Origin: an uncultured Gemmatimonadales bacterium
GTDB lineage: Bacteria; Gemmatimonadota; Gemmatimonadetes; Gemmatimonadales; GWC2-71-9
Reading direction: 5' to 3'
Assembly (NCBI GenBank): GCA_963798915.1
Contig: CAWCVB010000006.1
Span: 1-64,000, forward strand
Length of the DNA stretch: 64,000 bases
Both the position numbers and the translations under genes were made by a program. Position 1 is the first letter of the stretch, and every line of letters begins with the position of its first letter. Of this stretch, positions 1 through 15,515 are shown piece after piece. Under the pieces are notes generated by a model. It was given only the letters and a program-made list of their open reading frames with translations, had not been told where the DNA came from and ran no database searches.

Positions 1-933
1 GCGCTCCCTTGGCGCGCGGAGCGTTGCAGAGGCTGCTCACCGACGCACGCCAAGCCATCCATGAAGGCGCCCCGGTCGGCTCGGCACTCGCTGCCGGGAT
101 GGGGCTCGTTCCTGGGGGTCATAACCGGAATGGTGGCGCCGGTGAACGAGCCGGACGCCTGGGCCTGGCACTGGATCGGGCAGCGTCGCACCTGGAGCAG
201 GAGGCCGAACTGCTAGGGAAGCTTCGCCAGTCGTTGGCGTATCCGGTCATGCTGGCTGTCACCGGAACCATCTCCGTGCTCGTGATCGGCACTGTGGTTG
301 TTCCCCGGTTCGCGGCCCTGCTCGCGGATCTGGGACAATCGCTTCCGCACTCCACCCGGTTGCTGCTGGCCGGTTCCGCCTTGCTCTACCCGGCATGGTC
401 CCGTCCTGGCTGGAATCGCGATCGTTATCTCCATCGTGCTGTACCGGGATGCACTATACGATCGGCGGTTCTCTTGATTCACCACGTGCTTCTGTCATTG
501 CCGGTTGTCGGGGCAGTGCGTCATTCCCTCGCATCCGCCCGATTCTGCCGAGCGCTGGCAAGCACGCTGACAGCGGCATGCCGGTCCTTCCGGCACTCAG
601 CGCCGGGGCGGAAGCGTTGGGTGACGCGGCGCTGCTGTCACGTCTGGAGCGGGTCCGCGAGCGGGTTTCCCGAGGCCAGCCGCTTGCGAGTTCACTCTCA
701 GCGGAGCGCGCCGTCGTCCCGGTATGTGCCCAGTTGCTCGCGGTAGGGGAGGCCGGCGGGCGTCTGGCGGACCTGGCGGAGCGGGCCGCCGATGTGGCAG
801 CGGGCGAAGGCGAGCGGTCGCTGCGCACGCTTGTCGCCGTCATCGAACCGCTCTTCATCCTTTCTTCGGCGGCATAGTCGTCTTCGTCGCGATGGCGCTG
901 CTGCAGGCCGTATACGGACTCAGGCCGGTATAA
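1..933 (+). CDS. gspF: Type II secretion inner-membrane platform protein F (5'-partial, several frameshifts)
   Basis: GspF/PilC motifs are spread over three frames: GERAGRLGLALDRAASHLE..LRQSLAYP..VVVPRFA (9..746), GMPVLPAL..VGEAGGRL..VIEPLFIL (395..877), FGGIVVFVAMALLQAVY* (724..933). Confidence 0.85.
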
Positions 934-1196
934 CCCGACAGGGCTTCACGCTGGCGGAACTGATCGTGGTGCTTGCCATTATGGGAATTCTGTCCGGCGT
1001 TGCCGCGTTCGCGGCCAGCGGCGAGATGAAGAATGGATCTGGAAACGCTCTCGATCAGGACCTGGTGCTCCGCGACTCAGCCGTGTCCCTCGGGCGCCGC
1101 CTCACACGGCGTTTCACCGACTCCGCCGGAGTCACTTTCTGGACGACGTATCAGCCGGATGGCCGCGTCATACGTGGTTCAGCCCTTGGCCGGTAA
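930..1196 (+). CDS. Short type II secretion pseudopilin (GspH-like), ~88 aa
   Basis: Prepilin motif TRQG|FTLAELIVVLAIMGIL with E5. The in-frame codon overlapping the gspF stop is ATA (ATAA, where the operon otherwise has NTGA overlaps). Confidence 0.7.
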   Translation: MTRQGFTLAELIVVLAIMGILSGVAAFAASGEMKNGSGNALDQDLVLRDSAVSLGRRLTRRFTDSAGVTFWTTYQPDGRVIRGSALGR

Positions 1197-1198
1197 AA

Positions 1199-1258
1199 GA
1201 CATGGGACACGAGACACGAGACACGGGACTTGAGACACGAGACACGAGACACGAGACA
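1199..1258. repeat. Heptanucleotide tandem repeat (GACACGA)n, ~8.5 units
   Basis: gacatgg gacacga gacacga gacacgg gacttga gacacga gacacga gacacga gaca read directly. Confidence 0.95.
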
Positions 1259-1277
1259 GTCGGTCGAAGGAGAGCAA

Positions 1278-1624
1278 TTGATACGCAATGAACGTGGTGT
1301 AGTCCTGCTCGAAGTGATCATCGCCCTGACGATTCTCTCGGTGAGCGGCCTCTCGATGACAGCGCTGGTCTCGGCCGGGTTTGACGTCCAGCGCCAGGTC
1401 GAGGCACGGGAGCTGGAGCTACGCAGTGCCGACCGCGTCCTTGCTGCATACGCGCTTCTCACGCGCGACGAGCTCGACCTGCGCCTGGGTCAGCGTAAGG
1501 TCGGCGAGTTCCGGGTAACGGTGCAACGGCCCGACCCCGCTCTCTATCGGGTCGGCGTCGCAAGCGATGACGCACCGGACCCGCCCTGCTGGTAACGGTG
1601 CTCTATCGGCCGCCATCTCCATGA
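1278..1624 (+). CDS. gspI: Minor pseudopilin GspI-like (frameshift near 1580)
   Basis: AAGGAG RBS then TTG 1278; NERG|VVLLEVIIAL prepilin motif. The shifted frame LLVTVLYRPPSP* ends at an ATGA overlap with the next gene. Confidence 0.7.
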
Positions 1625-2151
1625 TCAATCGACGTAGCGGGTTCACGCTGATCGAGCTGCTGGTGGCCATCACCGTTGCCGGCATGGTGCTCCTCCTGGC
1701 GCACGCGCTTTTCGGGGCGGTTGCCGATGGGGCTGCGCGTATCGGACGGCACCATGCCGAAGCCGAGGCCCGGGCTGCGAGTCTCAGCTGGATGCATGAG
1801 ATACTGCGCTCGGCTGAAATCGGCCGGCCGGATGACGGCGGATTCGAGGGCGCGACCGATTCCGTGGCATTCACCGGCTATCTCCGGACGCCGGGAGGCT
1901 GGCCGGAGCGGCGCCGGATCACGCTGAAGACGGAATCGGGGGGTCTTCTGCTCCTGGCCGGTGACGACACGCTGCCACTGCAGCGCGGAGTAAGAGGAGT
2001 CTCGTTCGATTATCTGCTGGAGCCGGGAGCCGGCTCCCGATGGGTCAATGAGTGGCATTCCCCGGTGAGTGTGCCTCTGGCCATCCGCCTTCGACTTGCC
2101 GACTCACTCCGCGTGGATACGATGCTTTTTCTCGTCGGGACGCGGGGTTGA
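1621..2151 (+). CDS. gspJ: Minor pseudopilin GspJ-like
   Basis: MINRRSG|FTLIELLVAI; C-terminal W..EW...VPLAIRLRL typical of GspJ; position between I and K. Confidence 0.75.
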   Translation: MINRRSGFTLIELLVAITVAGMVLLLAHALFGAVADGAARIGRHHAEAEARAASLSWMHEILRSAEIGRPDDGGFEGATDSVAFTGYLRTPGGWPERRRITLKTESGGLLLLAGDDTLPLQRGVRGVSFDYLLEPGAGSRWVNEWHSPVSVPLAIRLRLADSLRVDTMLFLVGTRG

Positions 2152-3007
2152 ACGTGCCTGCTCGCTCCCGTCGCGGCTTTGCGTTGCTCACCGTGCTCTG
2201 GCTGGTGGCGCTGCTTGGCGGCGTGACGAGTGGTCTGCTCATGATCGTGCGGCACGAGCAGAACCTGAGCCAGAACCGGGTCGCGCTGACGCGGGTTCGC
2301 TGGGCCCAGGATGCCTGCCTCGGAATCCTGCAGGCGCACTATGCCCGGCAACAGGATGTCCGCGTCGTTGATTTGACGGACCTAGGCCGGGGAGTCTGGT
2401 GCAGAGCCGCAGTGACGGATCTTACGGCGCGGGTGAACCTCAACCTTGCGCCGCGAGCCCTGCTGCGGGCCGCATTGGATAACGATTCACTGGTTGACGC
2501 GCTCATGGACTGGCGGGATCCCGATTCGGCGCTCACCGGCCGTGGTGCGGAGCAGGGCTGGTACGCCGCGCACCGGCGTGATGGCCCGCGCAACGGCCCG
2601 TTCCGCAGCGTGGCCGAACTCACCCTGGTACGCGGGTTCGAGGCGGCACCTGATGCGTGGCTCGACGCGATCTTCACGGTCGAAGGTGACGGACGGATCA
2701 ATCCCACCTGGTTCCTCCCGCAGTGCTGAGTGGCATCCCCGGCCTCGATGCGGAGGCGGTTCATGTGCTCACGCTGCGACCGCCGGTGGCCGGCCTCGAT
2801 CAGCTTGCGAGCCGGGTGTCCTCCGCCTCGCGCCGCACCCTGTCTTCGGCATATCGAGAACTGAGCGCGCAGCTCGCCTTCCAGCCCGCCTGGCTGCAAG
2901 TCAGGCTCGAAGGCGGTGTGGGCGGCACCGCGGTCATCGCTGCCGAGCGGGTGCTCGCGGTGCCACTCGAATCCCGGCTGGCCATCATCATGCGGGAGCC
3001 CTGGTGA
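2148..3007 (+). CDS. gspK: Minor pseudopilin GspK (frameshift near 2705-2720)
   Basis: RRG|FALLTVLWLVALL lacking E5; RVNLN, DALMDWRDPD, GAE..Y, PRNGPFRSVAELTLVRG, GRIN motifs; continues in ORF 2723..3007. Confidence 0.85.
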
Positions 3008-4011
3008 CCCGGCGCCTGCTGCTTCGTATCTCCGGCGGCCACGTCCGGGCAGAACTTCAGGCCGATGGTAAAGCCTCGTGGGCGGCGGAGGCGGCCTTCA
3101 CGACAGCGGACGAACTGGAGCAGGCCATCGCCCAGCTGGCCGGTGAGCTGCCGCCCGGCCGGCGCCGACATGCCGACGTGCTGCTGCTCCCGCCCATGGT
3201 GCAGGCTCGGCGCCTGACTGACGTGCCGCCGGTACGAAGCCAGCGCGCGCTCGACGGAATCATCGCCAACCAGGCGAATCGCTATTTCCGACGCAACAGC
3301 CACCCGCTGGTCACTTCCGCTCGTCGTGTGAGACCAGGATGTTGGTTGGGCCGGGCGAAGCCGTCGCCCGTGGCAGCGGCCGCAGTCGAGCAGCAGTGGC
3401 TCGATGCCATTGGATCGGGACTCGATGCCGCGGGACTGGACGAGGGTTTCATCAGTGCGGGCCCGGAGCCTGGCGGGCCAGAATTTCGCTCCCGCAATGC
3501 CATGCTGTTTCATGCTCGGCGCACGCGCAGGCAGATCCTTAACCTCACCGTCATGGCCCTGGTCCTCTGGTCCGCGGCCGCCGTCACGTTCATCGCCCGG
3601 GCCCGGCAGGTCAAGGCCACGCTCGTGTCCCAGATCGCACGGTTGCAGGAACCAGCCTCGGCGGCGGCCAGTGCGCGCCGGGCACTGGAGCAGGCGCAGG
3701 AGGCTCTGGATTCGGTCTCGCTCTCCCGCCGCAGCACAATACATGCGCTCAGTACCATCGCAGCCCTTTCGGCAGCGATTCCCGACAGCGCCTTTCTCAC
3801 GTCACTGGAGTGGAGTGCCGCCGAGGGGGGCGCGGGCGCGGGCAGTTTGACCGGGGCCGGGCGGCACGCCGTCAACGTGATCGCGGCGCTGGAGCGTGCC
3901 GGAATGCCGCAGCCACGGATGGAGGGCGCGCCGGTGGTTGATATGTCCGGTGCGGAGCCACGCGAGCGATTCCTCATCCGGTTCGGAGCGGCATTGGAGG
4001 CCGGGCAATGA
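3004..4011 (+). CDS. gspL: GspL/PilN-like assembly protein
   Basis: GTGA overlap with gspK; cytoplasmic domain, single TM (ILNLTVMALVLWSAAAVTFIA), coiled coil, PilN-like LSAAIPDSAFLTSLEW..LTG. Confidence 0.6.
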   Translation: MTRRLLLRISGGHVRAELQADGKASWAAEAAFTTADELEQAIAQLAGELPPGRRRHADVLLLPPMVQARRLTDVPPVRSQRALDGIIANQANRYFRRNSHPLVTSARRVRPGCWLGRAKPSPVAAAAVEQQWLDAIGSGLDAAGLDEGFISAGPEPGGPEFRSRNAMLFHARRTRRQILNLTVMALVLWSAAAVTFIARARQVKATLVSQIARLQEPASAAASARRALEQAQEALDSVSLSRRSTIHALSTIAALSAAIPDSAFLTSLEWSAAEGGAGAGSLTGAGRHAVNVIAALERAGMPQPRMEGAPVVDMSGAEPRERFLIRFGAALEAGQ

Positions 4012-4571
4012 CCTCGCGCGAAGCCCGGGTGGTCAAGGTGGCGGGGGCGATCGTCATCGCAGCGCTGTTCATCCGGATGATTCCTGCCGTCACCCACCGG
4101 TGGCAGCGACAGCGGCTGCAGTTGCGGCAGCAGGCGGCGCTGGTTGCACGGTTCGAGCGCGAAGTCGAGTTCATCGGAGGCTTGTCCGAGCTGGCAGACA
4201 GCGTCCGGCGCCAGTTCCTCGCGTTGGACACCGCCATTCTTGCGGGGCGCACCGGCGCGGAAGCCGATGCCAGCCTCTCGGCCCATCTCAATCTTGCCGC
4301 GGACCGTGCCGGCACTCTGCTGCAGCAGGCGGTGCCCGTGGCAGATTCCGCAACAGCCGGCGCTCTCCATCGAGTCACGGCACGCGCCACCTTCGCGGGA
4401 GATACCCGCGGCATCGTCGCCACGCTCCGGTCGCTGGCGGAAGACCCGGTGTCCATGGCAGTGCGCACGGTTCGTATCGTGGCTCCTGACCCGGGCTCGC
4501 CCGATGGCACCGCCGAGACCTTGTCGCTCGAGCTGCAGGTCTCGGCGTGGTATCAGGAGCGGCGTCCATGA
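4008..4571 (+). CDS. gspM: GspM/PilO-like assembly protein
   Basis: MTSREARVV + N-terminal TM + coiled coil + ferredoxin-like C-terminus; operon position after gspL. Confidence 0.6.
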   Translation: MTSREARVVKVAGAIVIAALFIRMIPAVTHRWQRQRLQLRQQAALVARFEREVEFIGGLSELADSVRRQFLALDTAILAGRTGAEADASLSAHLNLAADRAGTLLQQAVPVADSATAGALHRVTARATFAGDTRGIVATLRSLAEDPVSMAVRTVRIVAPDPGSPDGTAETLSLELQVSAWYQERRP

Positions 4572-5050
4572 GAAGACTCGCTCGAGCCGGCCTGCTCGGC
4601 CTGACACTGGGCGGGGCTGTTGCGCTGGTGATCGCGGCACGTTGGGAACTGGTGAGGTGGGTGAGCGCAGCCGAGACGCGGATTCATCCTGCGGGCGTCG
4701 TGTTGCCGGCGTTCGACGTTGATTCATTGGGGCAGGTGATGGTGCGGGCGGCAGTGTTCCGGGAGCGGCGAACGCTCGCGCAGGTTGCCTTCGACCCGGT
4801 GCATGCCGGCGGAAACCAGTCGCCGGCGCCGGTCGCTGGTCCGCCGAGGCCCGCCATCCTGCTGGTCGGGATTGCATGGAGCGCTGCGCCGGTGGCGCTG
4901 CTCGATGGCGTGCCGGGCGTGGACGGCAGCCGAGCGATGCAGCGCGGCGACACGGCCGGTGGTCTCAGAGTCCGACGGATTACGCCAAGGGAGGTGGTGA
5001 TGACGGGATATGACACGACCTGGACGCTCCGCATCCGGGAGTTCCGATGA
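4568..5050 (+). CDS. T2SS-associated membrane-anchored protein (GspC/PilP-like candidate)
   Basis: ATGA overlaps on both sides; N-terminal TM; LLVGIAW..ALLD..GD..GGLRVRRITPREVV resembles the GspC HR/PilP beta-domain. Confidence 0.45.
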   Translation: MRRLARAGLLGLTLGGAVALVIAARWELVRWVSAAETRIHPAGVVLPAFDVDSLGQVMVRAAVFRERRTLAQVAFDPVHAGGNQSPAPVAGPPRPAILLVGIAWSAAPVALLDGVPGVDGSRAMQRGDTAGGLRVRRITPREVVMTGYDTTWTLRIREFR

Positions 5051-6516
5051 AACGTCCATTGCTGATCGTGATGCTCGGGCTGGTTGCGGGCGTGCCGTCT
5101 CTGCGGGCGCAGGACTCGTCGGGCGTCACGCTGCGGGTGACTCCGTCACCATTCACTTCGTCGAAGCCGACATGCGGGCGGTGATCCAGGCGCTGTCACA
5201 GTATCTGCCCAAGCCGCTGCTCACCATGAACCTGCCGGGAGACCGCGTCACCTTGGAGACGCCGGCTCCGGTGGCGCGGGAGAATATCCTCCCGCTGCTC
5301 AAGGGACTGGCTGAGGCGCATCGCCTCAGTCTGACGGAGGATTCCGCCTACTTCCGGCTGGGGCCCGTCCCCGCTGCGCAACCGCCAGCGCCAGCGGCGG
5401 CAGCCACAGCGCAGGGAAACACTCAACTCTTCGTGATTCATCTCAAGCATGCCAACGCGCCTGACGTGGCGGCAACCGTCAACATGCTCTATGGCGGCAG
5501 CGGCGCCTTCTCTGGCGCTGGACTCTCGACCGGAACGCTGTCGGACGAACTGCGCCGGACCAGCGCCGCGACCATGGCGGGAGGCGCTGCCGCGCCGGCC
5601 GATGCAGCCGGCGCGCCGGCGGGCGGCGCGGTGATCGTGCCCGACGCCCGCACCAATTCGCTCCTGATCCGTACCACCGCCGCCAACTTCACCCTGCTGC
5701 AGGATGCCGTGGCGCAGCTCGACACCCGGCCGCTTCAGGTGCTGATCGAAGTGCTCATCGTGGAGGCTCGGCGCGACAAGTCATTCTCGCTGGGCGCCGA
5801 CCTGGATCCTGGCGACCCAGGATCTGGGTAACGGTGCCACTGTGGAAGGTACCGTGAGCGGTGCCGGCGTGGGTGACGTGGTGCTCAAGTTCATGGACCT
5901 GGCCAAGGGACGGATCGATGCGCTGCTGAGCGTGGCCGAGTCGCGCGGGGACGTGAAGATAGTCTCCCGGCCGGTGCTGCTGGCGTCGAACAACACCGAA
6001 GCCCGGTTTCTGGTGGGCACCCAGCGCCCCTTCGTGCAGGTGAGCCGCAGCCTGCCGACCGATACCCCGAGCCGGGACCAGGTGGTGCAGTACAAGGACG
6101 TGGGCACCAAACTCACCGTGCGGCCTACAATCAATGAGGATGGCTACGTCTCGCTGGTCATCCAGCAGGAGATCAACGCCGCCACCAGCGAGACCCAGTT
6201 CGACGCCCCGATCATCTCCACTCGGGAGGCCTTCACCCAGGTGCTGGTGCATGACGGCCAGACCATCGTGCTGGGCGGACTGCGGGACCAGCAGTGGGAC
6301 CGGTCGCATTCCGGCGTGCCCCTGCTCTCGGGGATTCCCATCATCGGCGGCCTCTTTGGCAGCACCAGCCGGCGAAGCAGCGCCACCGAGCTCTATCTCT
6401 TTCTCACGCCGCGCATTCTCAGGACCGATGCGGACGCGGATGCGGTGACCCAGCCGAAGCTGCCGGCGTCCGAGCGGACCGATTCGGTGGCGGCGCAGGA
6501 GGTGCCGGCGCCATGA
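5047..6516 (+). CDS. gspD: Type II secretion secretin, short form ~490 aa (frameshifts near 5135 and 5810-5840)
   Basis: Signal peptide MKRPLLIVMLGLVAGVPSLRA; HFVEADMRAVIQAL (N0); LKHANAPDVA..VPDARTNSLLI..QLD.RPLQVLIEVLIVE; YKDVGTKLTVRPTIN; GVPLLSGIPIIGGLF..ELYLFLTPRI. Confidence 0.9.
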
Positions 6517-7485
6517 GCACGGCTGCGCTGAGCGCCAGGCTTTCCCTGGTACCTGACGATATGGGGCCGGAGATCATCACGGTCTCGGAGGCCATGCTGG
6601 ATGCCATCGCCGACGCGGATCGCTATGCGGTCCAGGGCTTCCCGGTGCTGCTCGTGGGTGAGACGGGGACCGGCAAGGAGCTCGTTGCCCGACGCATTCA
6701 TGCTCGGAGTGGGCGCCGCGGCGAGCTGGTGCCCGTCAATTGTGCCGAGCTGCGGCCGGAGCAGGCGGCGAATCTGCTCTTCGGGCACAAAACGTGGCGC
6801 ATTCACGGGCGCTACTGAAAGCACAACGGGGTTCGTGCGCCGGTCGTTGAGAGGCACGCTGTTGCTGGATGAAGTGACGAGTTTGCCGCTCGAAAGTCAG
6901 CCGACCTTGCTCCGGGTCCTGGAGACCGGCGAGGTCACGCCTTTCGGCGATGACAAGGCCGTGGAGGTTGATTTGCGGGTCGTGGCGGCGGCGCAGCCGT
7001 CGATCCGGCAGATGCTGTCGTCGGGCATGGCCCGGCTTGACCTCTTCGAGCGGCTCGCCGTCGCCACGGTTGTGCTGCCGCCGCTCAGGGCGCGCCCGGC
7101 TGACATCCGGTTGCTGGCGGAGGCGTTCGCGAAGCAGCAGGGAGTCCGCCTCCATCCCGGTTTGGGCGTGCAGCTTCAGGGTCACGCCTGGCCCGGTAAT
7201 GTACGAGAGCTGAAGTCGGTCATTGCACGGGCGGCGGCGCATGCGATGGGAATGAGCATCGGGAGCGAGGAGCTGGCAAAGGCCATGCAACCGGATCTCC
7301 TGACCCCCACGAACCTGGAGGAGGAGGCGCACCGGGTGCAGCAACGGGAGCGCCTTCGCGACCTCTGCGTCGAGGCCGCTGGCGATTGGCGCCGGCTGGT
7401 GGAGCTCACTTGCCTGAGCCGGGCAAGCCTGTACCGACACTTGGGAAAGCACGGGTTGCACCTGCGACACTTCCGGCATTCTTGA
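6513..7485 (+). CDS. Sigma-54-dependent enhancer-binding protein (AAA+ plus HTH, no sensor/receiver domain; frameshift at A-run ~6789-6793)
   Basis: Walker A GETGTGKE, VNCA, LFGH(K)RGAFTGA, Walker B LLLDEV, WPGNVREL, C-terminal HTH SRASLYRHL; ATGA overlap with gspD. Confidence 0.88.
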
Positions 7486-7549: not shown

Positions 7550-7562
7550 TAACTCGTTGGCT
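7550..7562 (-). promoter_or_regulatory. IHF-like binding site
   Basis: Reverse complement AGCCAACGAGTTA has 2 mismatches to WATCAANNNNTTR; lies between the candidate UAS and the sigma-54 promoter. Confidence 0.4.
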
Positions 7563-7590
7563 GGTGAGTACGTCCTCGTCACGCTCGACG

Positions 7591-7605
7591 CGGCACGCCG
7601 CCTGC
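7591..7605 (+). promoter_or_regulatory. Sigma-54 (-24/-12) promoter of the rhs gene
   Basis: CGGCACGCCGCCTGC: GG(7592-3)-N10-GC(7604-5), close to TGGCACG-N4-TTGC; followed by GGAG RBS (7631) and GTG (7641). Confidence 0.6.
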
Positions 7606-7640
7606 CTTATCCGATGGGCATTCCCTTACCGGAGCCCATT

Positions 7641-10600
7641 GTGCGGACGCTCTCACCTGGCTGGTCCCGTGGTCTGTCTCGTGCCGTCGTTTTGCTTCTC
7701 CTCGGGCTGCTGCCGCTGGCCCTGAATGCCCAAGGGAATAGCGGCGGGAAGAGCGGAGGCGGGAGTATCGGGGGAGGGGGGATCCAGCCCCTCTGCGTCT
7801 CCGGCTGCCTGCCGGACTACGCCGTCAGTGTCACGCCCGATGGGGACGACACGCCCGACCGCAATGCGACGAGCGGTGGCTACTACGCCACCTTCTCCAT
7901 TCACAATAGCGGCCAACTGAATGATACGTATTGGCTGAACTGCTCGGCGACCGGTCCCGTGACTTGCGACAGTCTCAGCGTCTCGAGCCTCGCGGTGAAT
8001 GCGGGAGCTACCAAGACCGCCAGAGCCTGGTACTCAGTTGGCAACCCCGGCACCGGGACGGTCACGCTTCATGCCGAGGGCGAGGCCTCCGATGTGGGCT
8101 ACTACGATGTGCATGTGGTAACCCCGCCCGCGAGCCCGATCGTGCTGCTCAGGCCCTGGAACGGGGCGGTGCGGGACCTCTCGGCCTGCGTCAACGCCTG
8201 CTTCGAGAAAGTGGTGACCCACGCCACGCCAGCCTACATCTCGATGGACGTGCCGCGGTCGTTCGGGCTGACCTACGCCAGCGGCAGCGTGCGGCCCACG
8301 CCGGTCGTCTGGGTGGACGTGCTCCGGCCCAGCGGTGCCACCAGTCTCACCATCAGCCTGCAACGCGTCTCGTCAGGTCAGAACCTGACGCTTCTCAACG
8401 GGACGGCGGCGGCGTGGTACGCCGTCTCGGGCGACACGGTCCGGATGGCGGCTGCCTTCGATGCCGTGGCCAACAGCATCACCGCCTCCGGCGTCTACGC
8501 GATCCGGGTCACGGTGACCGCCAACTTTCCGACGACTTCCTCCAGCACCACGCTGACCACGACGGTACCCGTGGTCTATACCCATGGCGGGGCCTTCGGC
8601 GAGGGCGTCTGGCCCACCGGCCTGCCGCGGCTGGTGACGAATACGGACGCCGGTGGCAGTGCGCTGATCCAGTCGGATGGGTCCATCTTCTATTATGGCG
8701 CGGGCCATCCCGGCGGCATTATCGCGTCCCTGAGCGGCACGACGCTCACCGGACTGGATGGATCGACCGTCACCTTCAACGCCGCGGGCCTGCCGACGGC
8801 GGCCAGCGACCGGTATGGCAATGCCAGCCATTACTATTGGACCGCTGCCCAGCTCGACAGTATCAAGGATCCAATGGGGAAGCGCATCCGGCTCACCTAT
8901 GCAAGCGGGAAGCTGGCCACCGCCACCGATCCCGGCGGCCGGGTCACCCACTATACCATCAATGGCTCCAACCAACTGGCGGCCATCCAGGACCCCGACA
9001 CCGTGTCCACCCAGTTCGGCTACGACGCGCTGGGGCTGCTCACCACGCTCACCGGCCGGAACGGGGCGGTCTGGAAGACGGTCTACGATGAACTCCACCG
9101 GGTCAAGGCGGACAGCGCCCCCGCCGTGCTGCTCCACGACGGGACCACCAAGCGCCCAGCCGTGACGTATCTGGCCGCCGAGCGGGTGGTCTGGCAGCCC
9201 CAGACGGCGGGGACCTCGGCGGCGACCGCCAAGGCGGCGGTCAAGATCGATACCATCCGCGCCGATATCACCGGTCCGCTGGGTGCCCGGAGCCGGTTCA
9301 AGCTCGACCGGTTCGGCTCGCCACTGCTCGCGATCAATCCCCTCGGCGCCACGACGACCTTCACCCGCGACACGGCGGGTCGGGTCACCCAGACCATCGA
9401 ACCCAACGGGCATGTCACCCAGGTGACCTACGGGTACGAGAATATCCAGCAGGGCGTTCCGTACAATCCGTATGTGGTACAGGAGCAGAGGGATGCCAGC
9501 AAGGGCAAGGGCATCTTCTATAACTACAATACGAATCACGACGTTACAGTGATCGTTGGCAGCTATGGCGATTCCTGGATCCCACGGCGGGATTTCACGT
9601 ATGACACGCAGCACCGCCTCTCCACTGTCAAGATCGGCGGCAGCACGGTCGCTAGCGCCACCTACCATTACGACGCGATGAGCCGGGATACGTCGGTCAA
9701 GGATGCGGAAGGGCATCGGGTAAGAAAGGTCTACGATCTGGTGACCGGCAACGTCAAGGAGAGTTATGACGCGCTGGGCCACCGCACCCGGCGGCATTTT
9801 GACGCGCTCGGGCGTACCGACTCGGTCTATGCCCCGAACGGCGCGGTCAGTGGCACGCAGTATGGCATCCTGAACCAGATCCTGGCGGTCAAGAATCCGC
9901 TGGGCTATACCACCCAGACCAGGTACAACCCGGATCTTACGGTGCAGCGGATCATCGACGCCAGGAATCAGGTCTACAAGTTCAGCTATAATACGCTGGG
10001 GTGGCCCACCGCCCGGTTCGACCTGGCCGACACCACCAAGGCCGACTCGATGTGGTATGATGCGGCAGGACAGGTCAAGCGGACGAAGACCCGGCGCGGC
10101 AACGTGCTGCAGGCGCAGTATGACATTACCGGCCGGTTGACTGAGCTCATGTACCGGCGGCCGGGCGCCACCGTGGACACGGCGTATGCCATCTTCAGCT
10201 ACGATACGGTCGGCAAACGCGTCCGGGGCTGGAACTGGAATCAGACCGACTCACTGGTGTACAACTACCTGGGGCAGCTCACCGACCATTGGATGCGGCA
10301 GGGCACGGAAATGTTCCAATGGGTCTACCAGTACGATAGCCAGGACCGCCTCACCACGCGTCTCCTCTCCCAGAACGGCACGTCGGTGTCGGCGGGCACG
10401 CTCTCCCGGTATTTTGACAGTTACGGCCAGCTGAACTCTATATCCGCCGCCGGGGTCACTGTCCGGTTTGATCGCACGACCGCCGACTCGCTGCCCACCA
10501 AGCAGGTGATCAATCCCGGCAGCGCCGGCAGCTGGTGGATGAGTTCGGTCCTGGACAGCGCGCACATGCCCGTCCGCGACTCGCTATCCATCTCTACCCT

Positions 10601-12131
10601 CGACGACAGGTATGGAAAGATCATTCAGCATGATTCTTTGGGTCGGCTCGCCTCGACTGATCCATACAACTACTTGGGCGGCCGCCGGTATCGCTATGAT
10701 GCGGCGGGACAGTTGCGCCAAGCCTGTACCCAGATCGCGACCTATTGTATTGGTGCCAACGGTACAGACGCGTTGACTGAAGACGCCTATAGCTATGATG
10801 CCACAGGCAATCGCACCGACACCGCCGCCACCACAACCACGGTCATCGGTGCCGGTAACCGCGTGACGCAGTTCAAGGGCTTCGCGCTCAGCTATGATGC
10901 CGACGGCAACATCCTCTCCAAGAGCGGCAATGGGGAATCCTGGACCTACACCTGGGACCCGTTCGACAAGCTGACCGACGTGACGTTGAACGGCGTCTTG
11001 GTCTACCATTTCGTCTATGACGCCTTCGGTAACCGGGTCAATCGCTGCACCAATGCGGGCTGCTCGGCGGGCGAGCGGCAGATCAACGACGGCAGCCAGT
11101 TCATCCTGGCCCGGAATGGCAGCAACGTGGTCACCGACGCCTACGGCTTCTATCCCGGCGGCGACCAGCCGATGAGCCTCAAGCTGGCGAGCGGCCGGAC
11201 CGGCGTCTTCCTCACCGATCCCCAGCTGCGAGGCACCGTGCGCGCCATTGCCGACGCCGACAAGAACGCGACCAACGTCGAGTTCAAGACCTATGACGTC
11301 TCGCCCTGGGGCGAGGTGGCGGCGGATACCGGCACGGTGACCCGGCTCCGGCTGGCGGGACAGCAATATGACCAGGGATCGGAACTCTACTACATGCGAG
11401 CGCGGTACTATGATCCGGAACTGGGGCGGTTTCTCTCCGAAGATCCGATCGGGATCAATGGGGGTTTGAATCTCTACGCCTATGCCGGGAATGATCCGGT
11501 CAACATGTGGGACCCGAGCGGGACAAGCGGCATGGGACCAGGGCCCTCGTGCGTGCGCGGTGGGCCGCCATGCGAACTACCGGATGTCGTCGTTCCCAAC
11601 CCTCCCACGGACATCGTGACGATTGCGCCTGGAGTGCGGTCGGGTTCCTATGGAGGATCAGGGTATCCTGGAAAAGGCGGTCAGGCACCATGGCAAACGG
11701 GGGATGACGGGGCCGGGACGCCGAAGCAGTCGTGTGAGCGCCTGTTTGTTCAATTCGCGACCAACGTTGCGATTGACGCAGCCCTCGGAGGATTGGGCGG
11801 TGTTGCACATGGCATTGAGGCGATTGGCCACTCCAACGCCTTGCTGCGGGTTGGAGCGGAAAGCCTGAATGATGCGAGAGCATTCCTGAGGGCCGGCAAT
11901 CCTGGCACGGCGGCGGTGTTTGAGGCGAATGGCCTGAGGCTACTCGCGAATGGAGGGGCGCTCAGCGCCGAGCGGCTCGAAGGGGAACAGTTGCTCGCGC
12001 GTGGCGTGGCAGGATCGGCCCACAGCTTCGCAACAGCCAAGACCCTTTTTGATGTGGCCGTTTCGTTCATCCCTTACGGTGCCTCAGCTGTCAGTGGTTA
12101 TGAATGGGTGAGGAAATGCGTAATCAAGTAG
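7641..12131 (+). CDS. Rhs/YD-repeat protein with Sec signal peptide, N-terminal Ig-like domain and C-terminal putative toxin (~1,496 aa)
   Basis: N-terminus MRTLSPGWSRGLSRAVVLLLLGLLPLALNA|Q; many YDxxGR-type repeats; Rhs core LYYMRARYYDPELGRFLSEDPIG..GGLNLYAYAGNDPVNMWDPSG; ~201-aa variable tip after 11525. Confidence 0.93.
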   Translation: MRTLSPGWSRGLSRAVVLLLLGLLPLALNAQGNSGGKSGGGSIGGGGIQPLCVSGCLPDYAVSVTPDGDDTPDRNATSGGYYATFSIHNSGQLNDTYWLNCSATGPVTCDSLSVSSLAVNAGATKTARAWYSVGNPGTGTVTLHAEGEASDVGYYDVHVVTPPASPIVLLRPWNGAVRDLSACVNACFEKVVTHATPAYISMDVPRSFGLTYASGSVRPTPVVWVDVLRPSGATSLTISLQRVSSGQNLTLLNGTAAAWYAVSGDTVRMAAAFDAVANSITASGVYAIRVTVTANFPTTSSSTTLTTTVPVVYTHGGAFGEGVWPTGLPRLVTNTDAGGSALIQSDGSIFYYGAGHPGGIIASLSGTTLTGLDGSTVTFNAAGLPTAASDRYGNASHYYWTAAQLDSIKDPMGKRIRLTYASGKLATATDPGGRVTHYTINGSNQLAAIQDPDTVSTQFGYDALGLLTTLTGRNGAVWKTVYDELHRVKADSAPAVLLHDGTTKRPAVTYLAAERVVWQPQTAGTSAATAKAAVKIDTIRADITGPLGARSRFKLDRFGSPLLAINPLGATTTFTRDTAGRVTQTIEPNGHVTQVTYGYENIQQGVPYNPYVVQEQRDASKGKGIFYNYNTNHDVTVIVGSYGDSWIPRRDFTYDTQHRLSTVKIGGSTVASATYHYDAMSRDTSVKDAEGHRVRKVYDLVTGNVKESYDALGHRTRRHFDALGRTDSVYAPNGAVSGTQYGILNQILAVKNPLGYTTQTRYNPDLTVQRIIDARNQVYKFSYNTLGWPTARFDLADTTKADSMWYDAAGQVKRTKTRRGNVLQAQYDITGRLTELMYRRPGATVDTAYAIFSYDTVGKRVRGWNWNQTDSLVYNYLGQLTDHWMRQGTEMFQWVYQYDSQDRLTTRLLSQNGTSVSAGTLSRYFDSYGQLNSISAAGVTVRFDRTTADSLPTKQVINPGSAGSWWMSSVLDSAHMPVRDSLSISTLDDRYGKIIQHDSLGRLASTDPYNYLGGRRYRYDAAGQLRQACTQIATYCIGANGTDALTEDAYSYDATGNRTDTAATTTTVIGAGNRVTQFKGFALSYDADGNILSKSGNGESWTYTWDPFDKLTDVTLNGVLVYHFVYDAFGNRVNRCTNAGCSAGERQINDGSQFILARNGSNVVTDAYGFYPGGDQPMSLKLASGRTGVFLTDPQLRGTVRAIADADKNATNVEFKTYDVSPWGEVAADTGTVTRLRLAGQQYDQGSELYYMRARYYDPELGRFLSEDPIGINGGLNLYAYAGNDPVNMWDPSGTSGMGPGPSCVRGGPPCELPDVVVPNPPTDIVTIAPGVRSGSYGGSGYPGKGGQAPWQTGDDGAGTPKQSCERLFVQFATNVAIDAALGGLGGVAHGIEAIGHSNALLRVGAESLNDARAFLRAGNPGTAAVFEANGLRLLANGGALSAERLEGEQLLARGVAGSAHSFATAKTLFDVAVSFIPYGASAVSGYEWVRKCVIK
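11013..11525 (+). repeat. Rhs core repeat copy 1 (other copies at 12675-13140, 14128-14640 and partial 18340-18429)
   Basis: Direct comparison: 11060-11278 is identical to 12675-12893 (offset 1615); copy 3 is colinear at offset 3115. Confidence 0.95.
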
Positions 12132-12210
12132 CCACGTTCAAGACAGGGAACAACGTGCGCTGGGTGACATCACATGGCGATTTCCGGAGACTGGAATTGG
12201 AAGTGGCTCA

Positions 12211-12606
12211 GTGACCGACAAGACTTCCGAGACCGTGCGTGCTCGCGCCGCCGCCGGAGCTTGGCGAGGACTGCGATGGGGTGCGCTCCTAGCTCTATAT
12301 GTAAGTGTCATGGATGTGATTGGCAAAGGGCGCGCGCTCAGAGACTTGAGCGCGTCTCTGCCTGCTCTGATTTGGGCCTATTTGCTGGGAGGAATGTTGG
12401 CAGGAGCACTGCTCGCTGCCCTGCGGCCGCTCAGGCGAGCGTGGTGGGGTCGGCTGGCGAGCGGCATAGTCGCTGGCACGGTCGGTGGATTCGTACTTCT
12501 CGTGGCATTGCGGCCGGAAGGTTCGCTCGCCGTGAAAGTCGCCAGCGCACTCCTGTTCGGTCTAACGGTTGGCGGCCTGAGCGGGCTGCTCTGGCTGCGG
12601 CGCTGA
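12211..12606 (+). CDS. Small multi-pass membrane protein, putative immunity protein for Rhs-CT1
   Basis: 131 aa, ~4 hydrophobic Gly-rich helices, directly downstream of the toxin tip. Confidence 0.6.
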   Translation: MTDKTSETVRARAAAGAWRGLRWGALLALYVSVMDVIGKGRALRDLSASLPALIWAYLLGGMLAGALLAALRPLRRAWWGRLASGIVAGTVGGFVLLVALRPEGSLAVKVASALLFGLTVGGLSGLLWLRR

Positions 12607-13749
12607 TTGGGCACGAATATCGCCCCGCCTGAGGGACTCAGCTACTGTCGTGCGGCGCGCTGCACCTCGGCGATCTGCTCGGCGGGCGAGCGGCAGATCA
12701 ACGACGGCAGCCAGTTCATCCTGGCCCGGAATGGCAGCAACGTGGTCACCGACGCCTACGGCTTCTATCCCGGCGGCGACCAGCCGATGAGCCTCAAGCT
12801 GGCGAGCGGCCGGACCGGCGTCTTCCTCACCGATCCCCAGCTGCGAGGCACCGTGCGCGCCATTGCCGACGCCGACAAGAACGCGACCAACGTGGAGTTC
12901 AAGACCTACGCCGTCTCGCCCTGGGGCACGGTGGCCGCGGATACCGGGACGGTGACCCGGCTCCGGATGGCGGGCCAGCCCTACGACCAGGGGTCGCGGC
13001 TCTACTACATGCGGACCCGGTACTATGATCCCGAGTTGGGGCGGTTTCTGTCCGAAGACCCGATCGGGATCGCGGGTGGTTTGAATCTGTATGCCTATGC
13101 CGGGAATGATCCGGTGAACATGTGGGACCCGAGCGGGACAAGCGCGACGGGGCCGGGCGACAAGTGCACGACTCCAAAGGGGCGTCCAGGTCTCATAGGA
13201 GCCGATGGTAATTCATGCGTCCTTTCACTGCCGGATATTGACGTTCCGTCCGGCGAGCCTCCTACGGACATCGTGACGATAGAGCCTGGAGTGCGGTGGT
13301 CAACGGGTTCCTATGGAGGATCAGCGTATCCTACGAAAGGAGGCCAGAAACCATGGCAGACGTCAGGGGATGGGAGTCAAACGGGATCAACACGACTCAG
13401 CGAGCCTTCATTCTGCTCGCAGTCATGGACTGAGACTTTCGAGGATGCCAAACGTGTCGGAGTACGCGGTGCCATAGTGGGAGCCGATGCTGGTGCTGTC
13501 ATTGGGTATATGGTTGGCGGAGGTGTCGGCGGTGCCGCCGGTGTGCTCGCTGCCGAAGGGCTCTCAAGTGGTCTTGCGATTCCTACGGCGGGAGTCTCCA
13601 CAATCGTGGCCTACTCCGTAGGAGAAAGCGCCGGAACTGCCGCGGGCGCATTTGCGGGTACACACATCGGTGCCATCGCAGGCGGCGTCATCGGAGGTGC
13701 GGGCAGTTTCCTCGGAACTCTTGGGGCGCGCTTGGCCTTCTGTAATTAA
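12607..13749 (+). CDS. Orphan Rhs core plus C-terminal toxin cassette 2 (glycine-zipper tip)
   Basis: Rhs core to DPSGT (13126-13140), then a 202-aa tip with GAIVGADAGAVIG..GAFAGTHIGAIAGGVIGGAG; no signal peptide or convincing start. Confidence 0.85.
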   Translation: MGTNIAPPEGLSYCRAARCTSAICSAGERQINDGSQFILARNGSNVVTDAYGFYPGGDQPMSLKLASGRTGVFLTDPQLRGTVRAIADADKNATNVEFKTYAVSPWGTVAADTGTVTRLRMAGQPYDQGSRLYYMRTRYYDPELGRFLSEDPIGIAGGLNLYAYAGNDPVNMWDPSGTSATGPGDKCTTPKGRPGLIGADGNSCVLSLPDIDVPSGEPPTDIVTIEPGVRWSTGSYGGSAYPTKGGQKPWQTSGDGSQTGSTRLSEPSFCSQSWTETFEDAKRVGVRGAIVGADAGAVIGYMVGGGVGGAAGVLAAEGLSSGLAIPTAGVSTIVAYSVGESAGTAAGAFAGTHIGAIAGGVIGGAGSFLGTLGARLAFCN

Positions 13750-13796
13750 TCATACCGCTGCTGAGTTCCCAATCTATCGCACGCAGGAGTGTACGC

Positions 13797-14054
13797 TTGT
13801 TTAAAGACACATCGGGAAACGCACCAACGGTTGTACGACTCGCAATTGTCTGGGGGTTGCCCTTCGGGGTGATCTTGGCGCTGACCACTTGGCCAATGAT
13901 GCATGAGAAGATTGCTCTTCCTGGTCACGCCAACGCAGCATTTGTGAAGTGGCTCATATACTGGATGATACTCGGATTGGCCATGGGCGTCGTGTGGGGA
14001 TGGGTCTTTCGCTGGCTTGCACACGCTCGCAAGGACAGGGAAAAGAATACGTAA
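13797..14054 (+). CDS. Two-TM membrane protein, putative immunity protein for CT2
   Basis: AGGAG RBS before TTG; 85 aa, two hydrophobic segments (LAIVWGLPFGVILAL; WLIYWMILGLAMGVVWGWVF), basic tail. Confidence 0.6.
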   Translation: MFKDTSGNAPTVVRLAIVWGLPFGVILALTTWPMMHEKIALPGHANAAFVKWLIYWMILGLAMGVVWGWVFRWLAHARKDREKNT

Positions 14055-14127
14055 CACTTGGCAGCACTTAATTCATCGACGAGCTGTCGGGATGCGAGAT
14101 CCCGGAAGGGAATGCCGGGCCGCTATT

Positions 14128-15216
14128 GTCTATGATGCCTTCGGCAACCGGGTGGCGGGCTGCACCACCGCCACCTGCTCAGCGGGCGAGCGGCAGATCA
14201 ACGACGGCAGCCAGTTCATCCTGGCCCGAAACGGCAGTGGAACGATCACCGACGCGTACGGGTTCTACCCGGGCGGGGACCAGCCGATGAGCCTCAAGCT
14301 GGCCAGCGGCCGGATCGGGATCTTCCTTACCGATCCCGCGCTTCGCGGCACCGTGCGGGCCATCGCCGACGCCTACCAGAACGCGACCAACGTGGAGTTC
14401 AAGACCTACGACATCTCGCCCTGGGGTGAGGTCGCGGCGGATACCGGCACGGTGACCCGGCTTCGGATGGCGGGGCAGCCCTACGACCAGGGCGCGCGGC
14501 TCTACTACATGCGGGCCCGGTACTATGATCCCGAGCTGGGGCGGTTTCTCTCGGAAGACCCGATCGGGATCAGCGGCGGCTTGAACCTCTACGCCTATGC
14601 CGGGAATGATCCGGTGAATAAGGCAGACCCGACTGGCACGTCGGAGCAGTGCGGATGGGCGTGGTTCGAATACACCTACCGCTATATTGAGGGTCCCAAC
14701 AAGGGCGAGATTAGCCGGACCGAATATGGCCAGGAGTGGGTGTGTGACGACATCGCCGGTCCTCCGGCAGCCGCGCCATCGGAGTATCCTGCCAAGGGAG
14801 GCCGCAAGCCGTGGCAGGAGGACGGGAACTTCGAAGGCTTTGGTGGCAAACCTCCCAAGCTGTCGGAGCGGATACATTCCTGCGTGGAGTCAGAGATGCT
14901 GTCTCCGGAGGAGGCAATGGCGGGTGCCGCCGCGTTCGCTCCAATCTCCAAGCGTGCAGTTGGGCTTAAGGTAGTTGGTGGTGCAAGTGAGTACACAAAT
15001 GCGGTCAGTTTGACGCGCTTCGTCACTGGCGATGTACATCTACCTGCAAAAATTGCCGGCTCACCGAGTCTGTTCGGCGCTGCCGGTCGCGTCGGCCCTT
15101 ATGCTGCGGCTGGAATGCTTCTATTCCAGGCATCTGAAGTCGTGGCTTGTGTTGACGCCGGTAGCAGCGCTTCAGGCAGTGGCTTTGGAGGGGCTGGAGC
15201 CGGCGGGGACTTTTGA
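14128..15216 (+). CDS. Orphan Rhs core plus C-terminal toxin cassette 3
   Basis: Homology to the rhs gene starts at VYDAFGNRV (14128); core ends DPTGT (14626-14640); 191-aa distinct tip. Confidence 0.85.
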   Translation, partial: VYDAFGNRVAGCTTATCSAGERQINDGSQFILARNGSGTITDAYGFYPGGDQPMSLKLASGRIGIFLTDPALRGTVRAIADAYQNATNVEFKTYDISPWGEVAADTGTVTRLRMAGQPYDQGARLYYMRARYYDPELGRFLSEDPIGISGGLNLYAYAGNDPVNKADPTGTSEQCGWAWFEYTYRYIEGPNKGEISRTEYGQEWVCDDIAGPPAAAPSEYPAKGGRKPWQEDGNFEGFGGKPPKLSERIHSCVESEMLSPEEAMAGAAAFAPISKRAVGLKVVGGASEYTNAVSLTRFVTGDVHLPAKIAGSPSLFGAAGRVGPYAAAGMLLFQASEVVACVDAGSSASGSGFGGAGAGGDF

Positions 15217-15263
15217 TATGGAATTTTATCGACTTCAGGGCACTCAGCTGGATGGTTCATTCA

Positions 15264-15515
15264 ATGGGTGATACGAAGCGCTCGATCATCCGCTCTGCTG
15301 TATATGATGTGCTGGCAGCCATCACGCTGCGAGCGACGAGTAATATCCACGACGAGGACGACCTGATTGCGGATCTGGCAATCGACAGCGATGATCTGTC
15401 CATGTGGATGATACCCGAGCTCGAGCGGCGACTAGGGCATACGACAAGCCAACGGGACTGGGATCACGTGGCGACGGTGCAAGACGTGATCGATGTGTTC
15501 GAGTCACGCCGGTGA
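15264..15515 (+). CDS. Acyl-carrier-protein-like protein in the immunity position (DUF1493-like candidate)
   Basis: DDLIADLAIDSDDLSMWMIPELERRLG..WDHVATVQDVIDVF follows the ACP pattern L..DLG.DS.D....LE..FG....TV.D. Confidence 0.6.
   Translation: MGDTKRSIIRSAVYDVLAAITLRATSNIHDEDDLIADLAIDSDDLSMWMIPELERRLGHTTSQRDWDHVATVQDVIDVFESRR

Follow-up and report, generated by a model that had tools for sequence, protein, structure and literature searches.

What is the role of a short peptide, YPxKGGxxPWQ, that recurs inside the variable tips of a single Rhs locus? The locus lies within 64,000 nucleotides of DNA (positions 1–64,000 of contig CAWCVB010000006.1, assembly GCA_963798915.1; 65.7% G+C; hereafter the window) from an uncultured Gemmatimonadales bacterium, and comprises a full-length Rhs gene and two orphan cassettes, each ending in its own tip. 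The peptide occurs as YPGKGGQAPWQ in tip 1 (11664–11696), YPTKGGQKPWQ in tip 2 (13327–13359), and YPAKGGRKPWQ in tip 3 (14785–14817). As originally predicted, these are three in-frame copies: they are the only back-translated matches to the motif in the window, all on the plus strand, and 100 dinucleotide-preserving shuffles gave none. The whole 3.3-Mb genome contains only these three matches as well, with none for a backwards control. Our tentative answer, to which we give slightly less than an even chance, is that the linker containing the motif is a colicin-like, probably disordered import region, in which the motif provides a shared docking or processing epitope.

Tips 1, 2, and 3 are 206, 207, and 196 residues in length, counted from the D of the DPSGT or DPTGT that ends the Rhs core, and the motif is located 51, 67, and 53 residues past this D, respectively. 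Each tip has exactly four cysteines (residues 14, 21, 75, and 203 in tip 1; 14, 31, 97, and 206 in tip 2; and 9, 40, 86, and 175 in tip 3), and in every case Cys2 precedes the motif and Cys3 follows it, in agreement with its predicted position between two Cys pairs. Cys3 marks the start of the toxin domain, and Cys4 is located 1–21 residues before the C-terminus. We infer that Cys1–Cys2 and Cys3–Cys4 form disulfides. In tip 1, the Cys1–Cys2 mini-loop (11550–11573, tip residues 14–21) is followed by the TonB-box-like heptapeptide ELPDVVV (11574–11594), a PPTDIVTI block (11601–11624), and, past the motif, a Gly/Ala-rich toxin domain running from Cys3 to Cys4 (11733–12119) that is predicted at low confidence to be all-helical. 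Tip 2 has the TonB-box-like LPDIDV (13228–13245), identified as a motif match, and its own PPTDIVTI copy (13258–13281). In tip 3, the similarity to tips 1 and 2 is limited to the 11 residues of the motif, and upstream of these is instead an aromatic, Cys-closed segment of 32 residues (Cys9–Cys40, 14650–14745). This type-B loop is modeled by AlphaFold2 as a β-hairpin and contains no TonB-box-like motif. All of these features are on the plus strand.

The part common to tips 1 and 2, referred to as type A, consists of LPDxxVP, PPTDIVTIxPGVR, and GSYGGSxYPxKGGQxPWQT; PPTDIVTI is invariant in three type-A linkers. The DNA similarity that had been described for these two tips amounts to 82% identity over 129 aligned nucleotides, which fall into three blocks and include perfectly matching stretches of 21, 17, and 14 nt. 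It had been placed as starting at PPTDIVTI, but the true start is further upstream, at LPDxxVP (11577 in tip 1 and 13228 in tip 2). Within the motif, eight residues are invariant, and the proportion of synonymous differences (pS, with the codon next to the motif at either end included) is 0.44, 0.87, and 0.54 for the three tip pairs. The tip 1–tip 2 linker blocks have a synonymous divergence (dS) of 0.43 and a nonsynonymous divergence (dN) of 0.13, and the adjacent 145 core codons a dS of 0.21. This difference in dS means that the linker is older than the last homogenization of the core and has been held at the protein level. By these comparisons, the motif itself is constrained at the protein level.

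Relatives of the motif reveal what surrounds it elsewhere. When 1.84 billion representative proteins were searched with a profile, six matches were obtained at E≤0.001, namely P0004 (tip 3 itself), P0005, P0007, and three spurious repeat proteins; the representatives are chosen at 50% identity, and tips of full-length Rhs proteins can be hidden among them. A word-indexed search of 5.8 billion clusters, in which 8000 candidates were scored, added P0010. In P0005, a tip-3 ortholog whose toxin part is 50% identical, the motif takes the form ...KPGQ. A type-A linker is found in P0007 and in P0011, a longer member of its cluster; here the motif reads YPAKTGRKPWQ, and the toxin is of a fourth, unrelated type. 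The hairpin of tip 3 recurs in P0010, together with a fifth toxin and with only ...GGKGG... left in place of the motif. The contigs that carry P0005, P0007/P0011, and P0010 are 1.8–6.2 kb in length. P0005 and P0011 have core parts nearly identical to that of the window, and all six tips are therefore assigned to one Rhs lineage. The four-Cys pattern and the Gly/Ala-rich composition are found in six of six known tips.

The motif is joined to the toxins of tip 1, tip 2, tip 3/P0005, and P0007, among which pairwise similarity is significant only for tip 3 and P0005, and it is preceded by two unrelated loop types. Because four toxin types lie downstream and two loops upstream, and because P0010 has the tip-3 loop without the motif, exchanges have taken place on both sides, and the motif is located at a junction flanked by exchanged modules. 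The original prediction is partly borne out: the motif is a conserved element of the pre-toxin type, situated outside the Rhs core and outside any one toxin (it precedes four dissimilar toxin domains), and modules on either side of it have been swapped.

The distribution of the motif is narrow. Neither the motif nor PPTDIVTI was found in any frame of 31 other Rhs loci (27 from other genera of the family and 4 from the same genome). A hidden Markov model (HMM) of the linker gave nothing credible in 60 relatives or 400 phylum genomes, with best E-values of 0.005 and 2.6e-4 that both came with internal stops, and none of 5302 candidates scored when the tip-1 region was compared with proteins of full-length size. 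The strict DNA pattern matched eight stretches in one-genome-per-species contigs (none in Rhs context, three of the eight with a stop inside the motif) and one stretch in Joint Genome Institute (JGI) metagenome contigs (not in Rhs context, and again with a stop inside the motif); these were no more than chance matches. A search for related loci in metagenomes gave 127 pattern matches with none confirmed, confirmation being against tip 1 such that type-B relatives could escape. Within these searches, the motif is confined to one Rhs lineage. The proposed pattern and HMM check did recover variants of the motif, and a restriction to the three paralogs, which was to count against the prediction, was narrowly avoided through the variants in two further metagenomic clusters, all of the same lineage. 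Six partial patterns run against the whole genome identified no credible second host protein with a YPxKGGxxPWQ-like peptide, and mimicry of a host protein was rejected as an explanation.

The type-A linkers contain a second short element, located directly past Cys2, with the sequence ELPDVVV in tip 1, LPDIDV in tip 2, and LPDITV in P0007. We read the segment just before the Plug domain in the genome's eight TonB-dependent receptors. Three of these have ELPD[IL]xV directly before the plug, and three more have the close variants LPAIEV, LAPLIV, and LEEIAV. In eight congeneric genomes, LPD[IVM]xV occurs in 11 of 19 receptor loci (the rest having LPPIQV, LEDI.V, or LADITV), as compared to 0 of 9 receptor loci from other families of the order, where the usual form is instead ..IVVTA. 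A regular-expression count over the 3.6 million six-frame residues of the genome gave 17 occurrences of LPD[ILV].V, three of them receptor TonB boxes and two of them the tips; the chance of an occurrence in one 60-residue linker is ~3 in 10,000, with the related tips counted as a single event. At the motif level, the LPD[IV]xV of type-A linkers, including the tip 1 heptapeptide, is the genus-specific TonB box of the organism's own TonB-dependent receptors. PPTDIVTI had been our first guess for a TonB box, but LPD[IV]xV just upstream fits better. A full-text literature search of limited coverage found no description of a TonB box in an Rhs tip.

A genuine TonB is encoded in the genome (L036:1033–1716), having an N-terminal anchor with an S...H pair, a C-terminal TonB_C domain, and genus orthologs at 47–54% identity. 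It was used in place of a first candidate (C10:148250), which was rejected for its odd composition, its position at a contig end, and the lack of an ortholog in 40 relatives (E 1e-10). That candidate (G000:C10:148250–148903, L049/L058) is 218 amino acids in length, has the best TonB_C score, is rich in Lys, Asn, and Ile unlike the rest of the genome, and may be contamination or a recent transfer. The idea of a TolB box was also dropped. Two TolB_N matches above threshold (G000:C7:59510–62710 and G000:C2:301525–303888; L047 and L048) lie in Ser/Thr kinase-TPR proteins and not in TolB, and a canonical TolB was not detected in the assembly, which is 84.8% complete.

Structural predictions are of low confidence. 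The two AlphaFold2 models, of tips 1 and 3, were made from six-row alignments and have mean predicted local distance difference test scores (pLDDT) of 45 and 49. In tip 1, residues 1–74 have no secondary structure except for a short turn at 60–62 (block pLDDT 37–56) and are followed by five helices, with a pLDDT of 65–79 reached only at residues 110–150. In tip 3, the strands of the β-hairpin span residues 9–21 and 28–40 (mean pLDDT of 10-residue blocks 66–79), and the motif region (residues 43–77) is below 50. The linker, with its low pLDDT and almost no secondary structure, is Gly/Pro-rich and, according to these models, probably disordered. Its resemblance to a TonB-box segment is a match at the motif level, with no similarity at the profile level and with none in type-B tips. 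No Pfam or NCBIfam family covers any tip, only the Rhs parts being recognized; apart from RHS_repeat, the Pfam matches were limited to sub-threshold DUF6736 and SlpA in the repeat region (E≤1). PT-VENN (PF04829), PT-TG, and PT-HINT had no match in a Pfam scan of P0001–P0003 (E≤1). The linker profile and tip 1 matched nothing meaningful among Protein Data Bank (PDB) sequences (best E 0.23), and the best ESM Atlas score was only 0.76 (tip 2). No known cytotoxic domain, such as a colicin pore-forming domain, was identified in any tip with Pfam, NCBIfam, PDB sequences, or ESM Atlas.

Rhs toxins are usually treated as being delivered through a type VI secretion system (T6SS) or by contact. The Rhs protein in the window begins with a basic stretch and a hydrophobic stretch followed by ...ALNA/QG, which, read by eye, looks like a signal peptide; its N-terminal 381 residues match no Pfam family. 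A search of the assembly, which is 84.8% complete, gave no VipB/TssC match that would point to a T6SS sheath gene, and the combination of a T6SS in the genome and a PAAR- or VgrG-linked N-terminus that characterizes T6SS-delivered Rhs effectors was not found. Zhang et al. 2012 list RHS repeats among polymorphic toxins exported by Sec and the type II secretion system (T2SS), and regard pre-toxin domains as places where such toxins may be processed (PMC3482391). In ColM-type bacteriocins, a TonB box is located in the unstructured N-terminal part (PMC5821083).

The order of elements suggests how such a tip might work. A tip consists of a Cys1–Cys2 loop; in type A only, LPD[IV]xV and PPTDIVTI; YPxKGGxxPWQ; and a Gly/Ala-rich, putatively helical toxin of ~110–130 residues bracketed by Cys3 and Cys4. 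The Rhs protein would be exported by Sec and then, probably, by the adjacent T2SS. Once the tip is freed from the Rhs shell, the linker would act as does the unstructured translocation region of colicins and pyocins, threading into a related cell by way of one of its outer-membrane receptors, and type-A tips would engage TonB through the TonB box. The toxin would arrive at the inner membrane from the periplasmic side, and there kin would be guarded by immunity proteins embedded in the membrane. YPxKGGxxPWQ would be a second epitope present in all cassettes, either a docking site for an envelope protein of the target cell or a processing site; a shared second epitope would explain why the motif is kept while loops and toxins are swapped. 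The motif, its constraint, the mosaic build of the tips, the motif-level identity to the TonB box, and the T2SS neighborhood are observations; TonB binding, import, membrane action, and the exact role of the motif are what we infer from this arrangement. A fuller scheme, in which a diffusible, bacteriocin-like Rhs shell is secreted by Sec and T2SS and its freed tips, bearing a TonB-box mimic and the universal YPxKGGxxPWQ epitope, import disulfide-stapled membrane toxins through the receptors of kin, is possible but doubtful.

If this were the case, delivery of Rhs toxins would not always depend on contact or on a T6SS, and the linker would constitute a portable import module for exchangeable toxins. 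A TonB-box mimic that fits the receptors of the producer genus and stands at the N-terminus of a released tip, beside a second conserved peptide, would offer a concrete, testable route of outer-membrane entry for the Sec-exported Rhs proteins of diderms, and TonB-dependent entry would give Rhs systems a mechanistic tie to colicins and pyocins. As it belongs to one lineage, the motif is useful as a handle for mutagenesis and not as a general signature.

A number of observations weigh against import of this kind. The TonB-box match spans only 6–7 residues, and a profile with 95 positions, built from receptor N-termini so as to cover the TonB box and the beginning of the plug, did not list tips 1 and 2 at E≤100 and gave P0007 only at E = 18, such that there is no extended homology between linker and receptors. 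Descent of the linker from a receptor N-terminus was considered and rejected, as BLAST gave short matches only and the profile search was negative. Tip 3, P0005, and P0010 have no TonB-box-like motif; since tip 3 and P0005 nevertheless keep YPxKGG, the role of the motif is not attributable to TonB. The absence of the motif from P0010, the W to G change in P0005, and the GG to TG change in P0007 mean that not every motif position is essential. Neither ExbB nor ExbD was detected in the assembly (84.8% complete), and the secretin upstream of the Rhs gene, which is in two frames, may be defective. The product of the open reading frame (ORF) following tip 3 (15213–15515) is not a membrane protein. 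Because the toxins match no family in Pfam, PDB, or ESM Atlas, membrane action rests on their composition and on the candidate immunity proteins, and because both AlphaFold2 models are of low confidence, a low pLDDT is a weak sign of disorder.

Four other explanations of the motif were weighed. As a processing signal resembling VENN, it would be the point at which, once export or import has taken place, a protease or an autocatalytic step cuts the disulfide-closed toxin away from loop and linker. Its position in a low-confidence, probably exposed stretch exactly between two Cys-bounded modules and its retention across four toxin types are consistent with this, as is the proposal of pre-toxin domains as processing sites (PMC3482391). 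However, the locus has no protease gene, the tips have no similarity to PT-VENN, PT-TG, or PT-HINT, no conserved nucleophile follows the motif, and the GG to TG change in P0007 speaks against a site of the double-glycine type, as the rule for such sites is generally understood. We regard processing as a live rival, but an unlikely one. Somewhat less likely still is a passive or structural remnant of one ancestral tip, in which the motif, for example as a cap packing on the toxin fold, would simply be the slowest-evolving part and have no separate role in delivery. The confinement of the motif to six tips of one lineage, with none in 460 other phylum genomes or 31 other Rhs loci, would be expected from such descent, and so would the common four-Cys pattern and Gly/Ala-rich composition. 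Yet apart from tip 3 and P0005 the toxin domains have no significant pairwise similarity, two unrelated loop types precede the motif, and P0010 has the tip-3 loop without it; the data fit mosaicism better than uniform divergence.

The strict co-occurrence of the motif with one core lineage raises a further explanation, that of a packaging signal by which the unfolded tip docks to the inner wall or the exit of the Rhs shell, with the result that recombined cassettes are encapsulated and released correctly. P0011, P0005, and the window have nearly the same core segments, and the genome's other four Rhs loci, whose cores differ, lack the motif. P0010, however, has the same core end and no motif, and Rhs and Tc shells are not known to use a packaging signal of this kind; we consider this explanation improbable. 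The last possibility acts at the level of DNA, with cassettes exchanged by homologous recombination at the motif, as had been suggested originally. While tip 3 does diverge from tips 1 and 2 on both sides of the motif, exact identity inside it is shorter than 10 nt, tip 3 has no in-register run of 10 nt or more in common with the other two, and the 14- to 21-nt runs are found only in the upstream type-A block. With its residues kept, its synonymous sites strongly diverged, and its exact runs so short, the motif does not behave as a DNA recombination signal, and this part of the original prediction is very improbable.

The import region proposed above belongs to a locus with the layout of an Rhs array. 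The full-length Rhs gene (7557–12131, plus strand) encodes 1524 amino acids, comprising the hydrophobic, signal-peptide-like N-terminus, YD repeats, the core end, and tip 1. RHS_repeat matches it with E 4.5e-37 in 10 stretches, and the Rhs_assc_core corresponds to residues 1249–1322; the TIGR03696 core scores 93–95 bits in all three Rhs copies. Repeats and a TIGR03696 core with a PxxxxDPxG-type end, as in Rhs/YD-repeat toxins, are both present, as are the variable C-terminal tips, small downstream ORFs encoding candidate immunity proteins, and orphan cassettes of Rhs polymorphic toxins. The orphan cassettes each repeat the last 125–175 residues of the core ahead of their own tip. Cassette 2 (12607–13749) has ~175 core residues, then tip 2, and cassette 3 (14017–15216) has a core segment, then tip 3, with the database protein P0004 beginning at an ATG at 14092. 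The core ends in ...NDPVNMWDPSGT, or instead in ...KADPTGT in cassette 3. Rhs and Tc C-terminal aspartyl proteases are a known precedent for cleavage at such an end, and by analogy the tips are expected to be released by Rhs autoproteolysis at DPSGT/DPTGT (11511–11525 in the full-length gene; equivalents at 13126–13140 and 14626–14640 in the orphans). These features are likewise on the plus strand.

Candidate immunity gene 1 (12211–12606) encodes 131 amino acids with several hydrophobic 19-residue windows and no Pfam family, and candidate immunity gene 2 (13797–14054) encodes 85 amino acids with two hydrophobic segments and several hydrophobic windows; both products are membrane proteins as judged by hydrophobicity. 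A further ORF (15213–15515) overlaps the stop codon of cassette 3; as an immunity protein its 100-amino acid product would be atypical, being acidic and without any hydrophobic segment. It contains a DSDDL stretch that recalls carrier proteins, and differs from the membrane-type candidates 1 and 2. Downstream of the cassettes are fragments of the insertion sequences (ISs) IS110 and IS3 (15974–17167). Beyond these is a fourth, broken Rhs core remnant (18319–18438; ...YFMRARYYDPQLGRF..., then a stop), which points to a cassette array that was once longer.

Directly upstream, a T2SS gene cluster (3–6516) has matches to the Pfam families T2SSF, N_methyl, T2SSK_1st, T2SSM_b, Secretin_N, and Secretin. 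It includes genes for a GspF-like protein (3–877, T2SSF), a pseudopilin (1567–2151, N_methyl), a GspK-like protein (2052–2729, T2SSK_1st), a GspM-like protein (4008–4571; T2SSM_b at 21.5 bits, just below the cut-off of 21.7), and a secretin in two frames (5010–5831 and 5842–6516; Secretin_N and Secretin). The three candidate or overlapping ORFs and this cluster are all on the plus strand. The split in the secretin could reflect gene decay, a frameshift, or a mistake in the assembly. A sigma-54 activator ORF (6601–7485) separates the T2SS cluster from the Rhs gene; it matches the AAA+ profile only from position 72 on and looks N-terminally truncated.

Another 26 Rhs tips, drawn from as many other genomes of the family (L117–L144), were also read; two genomes flagged as unpublished (G023 and G214) were set aside, though they enter some tallies, and no statement at the sequence level depends on them. 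A Cys pair occurs within 50 residues of the core end in 21 of the 26 tips, and a Cys is found within 25 residues of the C-terminus as well in 13 of the 23 that are complete. The putative disulfide-loop architecture is much wider than the YPxKGG motif. A strict regular expression derived from the receptors matched 1 of 26 tips (0.16 expected), and a relaxed one matched 4 of 26 (0.58 expected); the relaxed form was picked after the data had been seen, so its excess is only a lead. TonB-box-like peptides lie right past the loop in a few of the family tips (L118, L119, and L124). In another Rhs of the same genome (G000:C7:187011–187244 and downstream, L042), a Cys and then ISLKEVDIAIT directly follow the core end. 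This peptide resembles the LKEIVVTA-type TonB box of receptors from the order's other families, and the long tip in question has a Cys-rich region and a GDPH motif.

Among known systems, PT-VENN and other pre-toxin domains (PMC3482391) provide one parallel, being short conserved elements between a constant delivery part and unrelated variable C-terminal toxins. Unlike these, the motif is unrelated in sequence, is located inside the tip, 51–67 residues past the boundary between constant and variable parts, and occurs in one Rhs lineage only. The TonB-dependent bacteriocins (colicins B, Ia, and M and the pyocins) provide another. As in these, the freed toxin would begin with a segment that is rich in Gly and Pro, is probably disordered, and contains a TonB-box-like peptide matching, at the motif level, the receptors of the producer's group; candidate membrane immunity proteins are present, and the toxin module is swapped behind what would be a common import region. 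They differ in that the segment here is embedded in an Rhs tip and would be exposed only after Rhs autoproteolysis, and in that no receptor-binding domain was recognized in the tips; the tips have no homology to colicin pore domains, and their engagement of TonB is putative.

The bipartite tips of CdiA-CT and Rhs-CT contain an N-terminal entry domain that is shared across toxins, is folded, and exploits inner-membrane proteins. The tips described here similarly have an N-terminal part common to cassettes with different toxins, but what they have in common is a short linear motif, set in a linker of low complexity. In classical enterobacterial rhs loci, a full-length gene precedes a series of orphans that consist of a core fragment and an individual tip, with a small gene downstream of each. 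The locus in the window resembles these arrays in its main gene and orphan cassettes, its IS fragments, and its further core remnant, and is unlike them in having a signal peptide, as read by eye, and a T2SS neighborhood in place of a PAAR, VgrG, and T6SS context.

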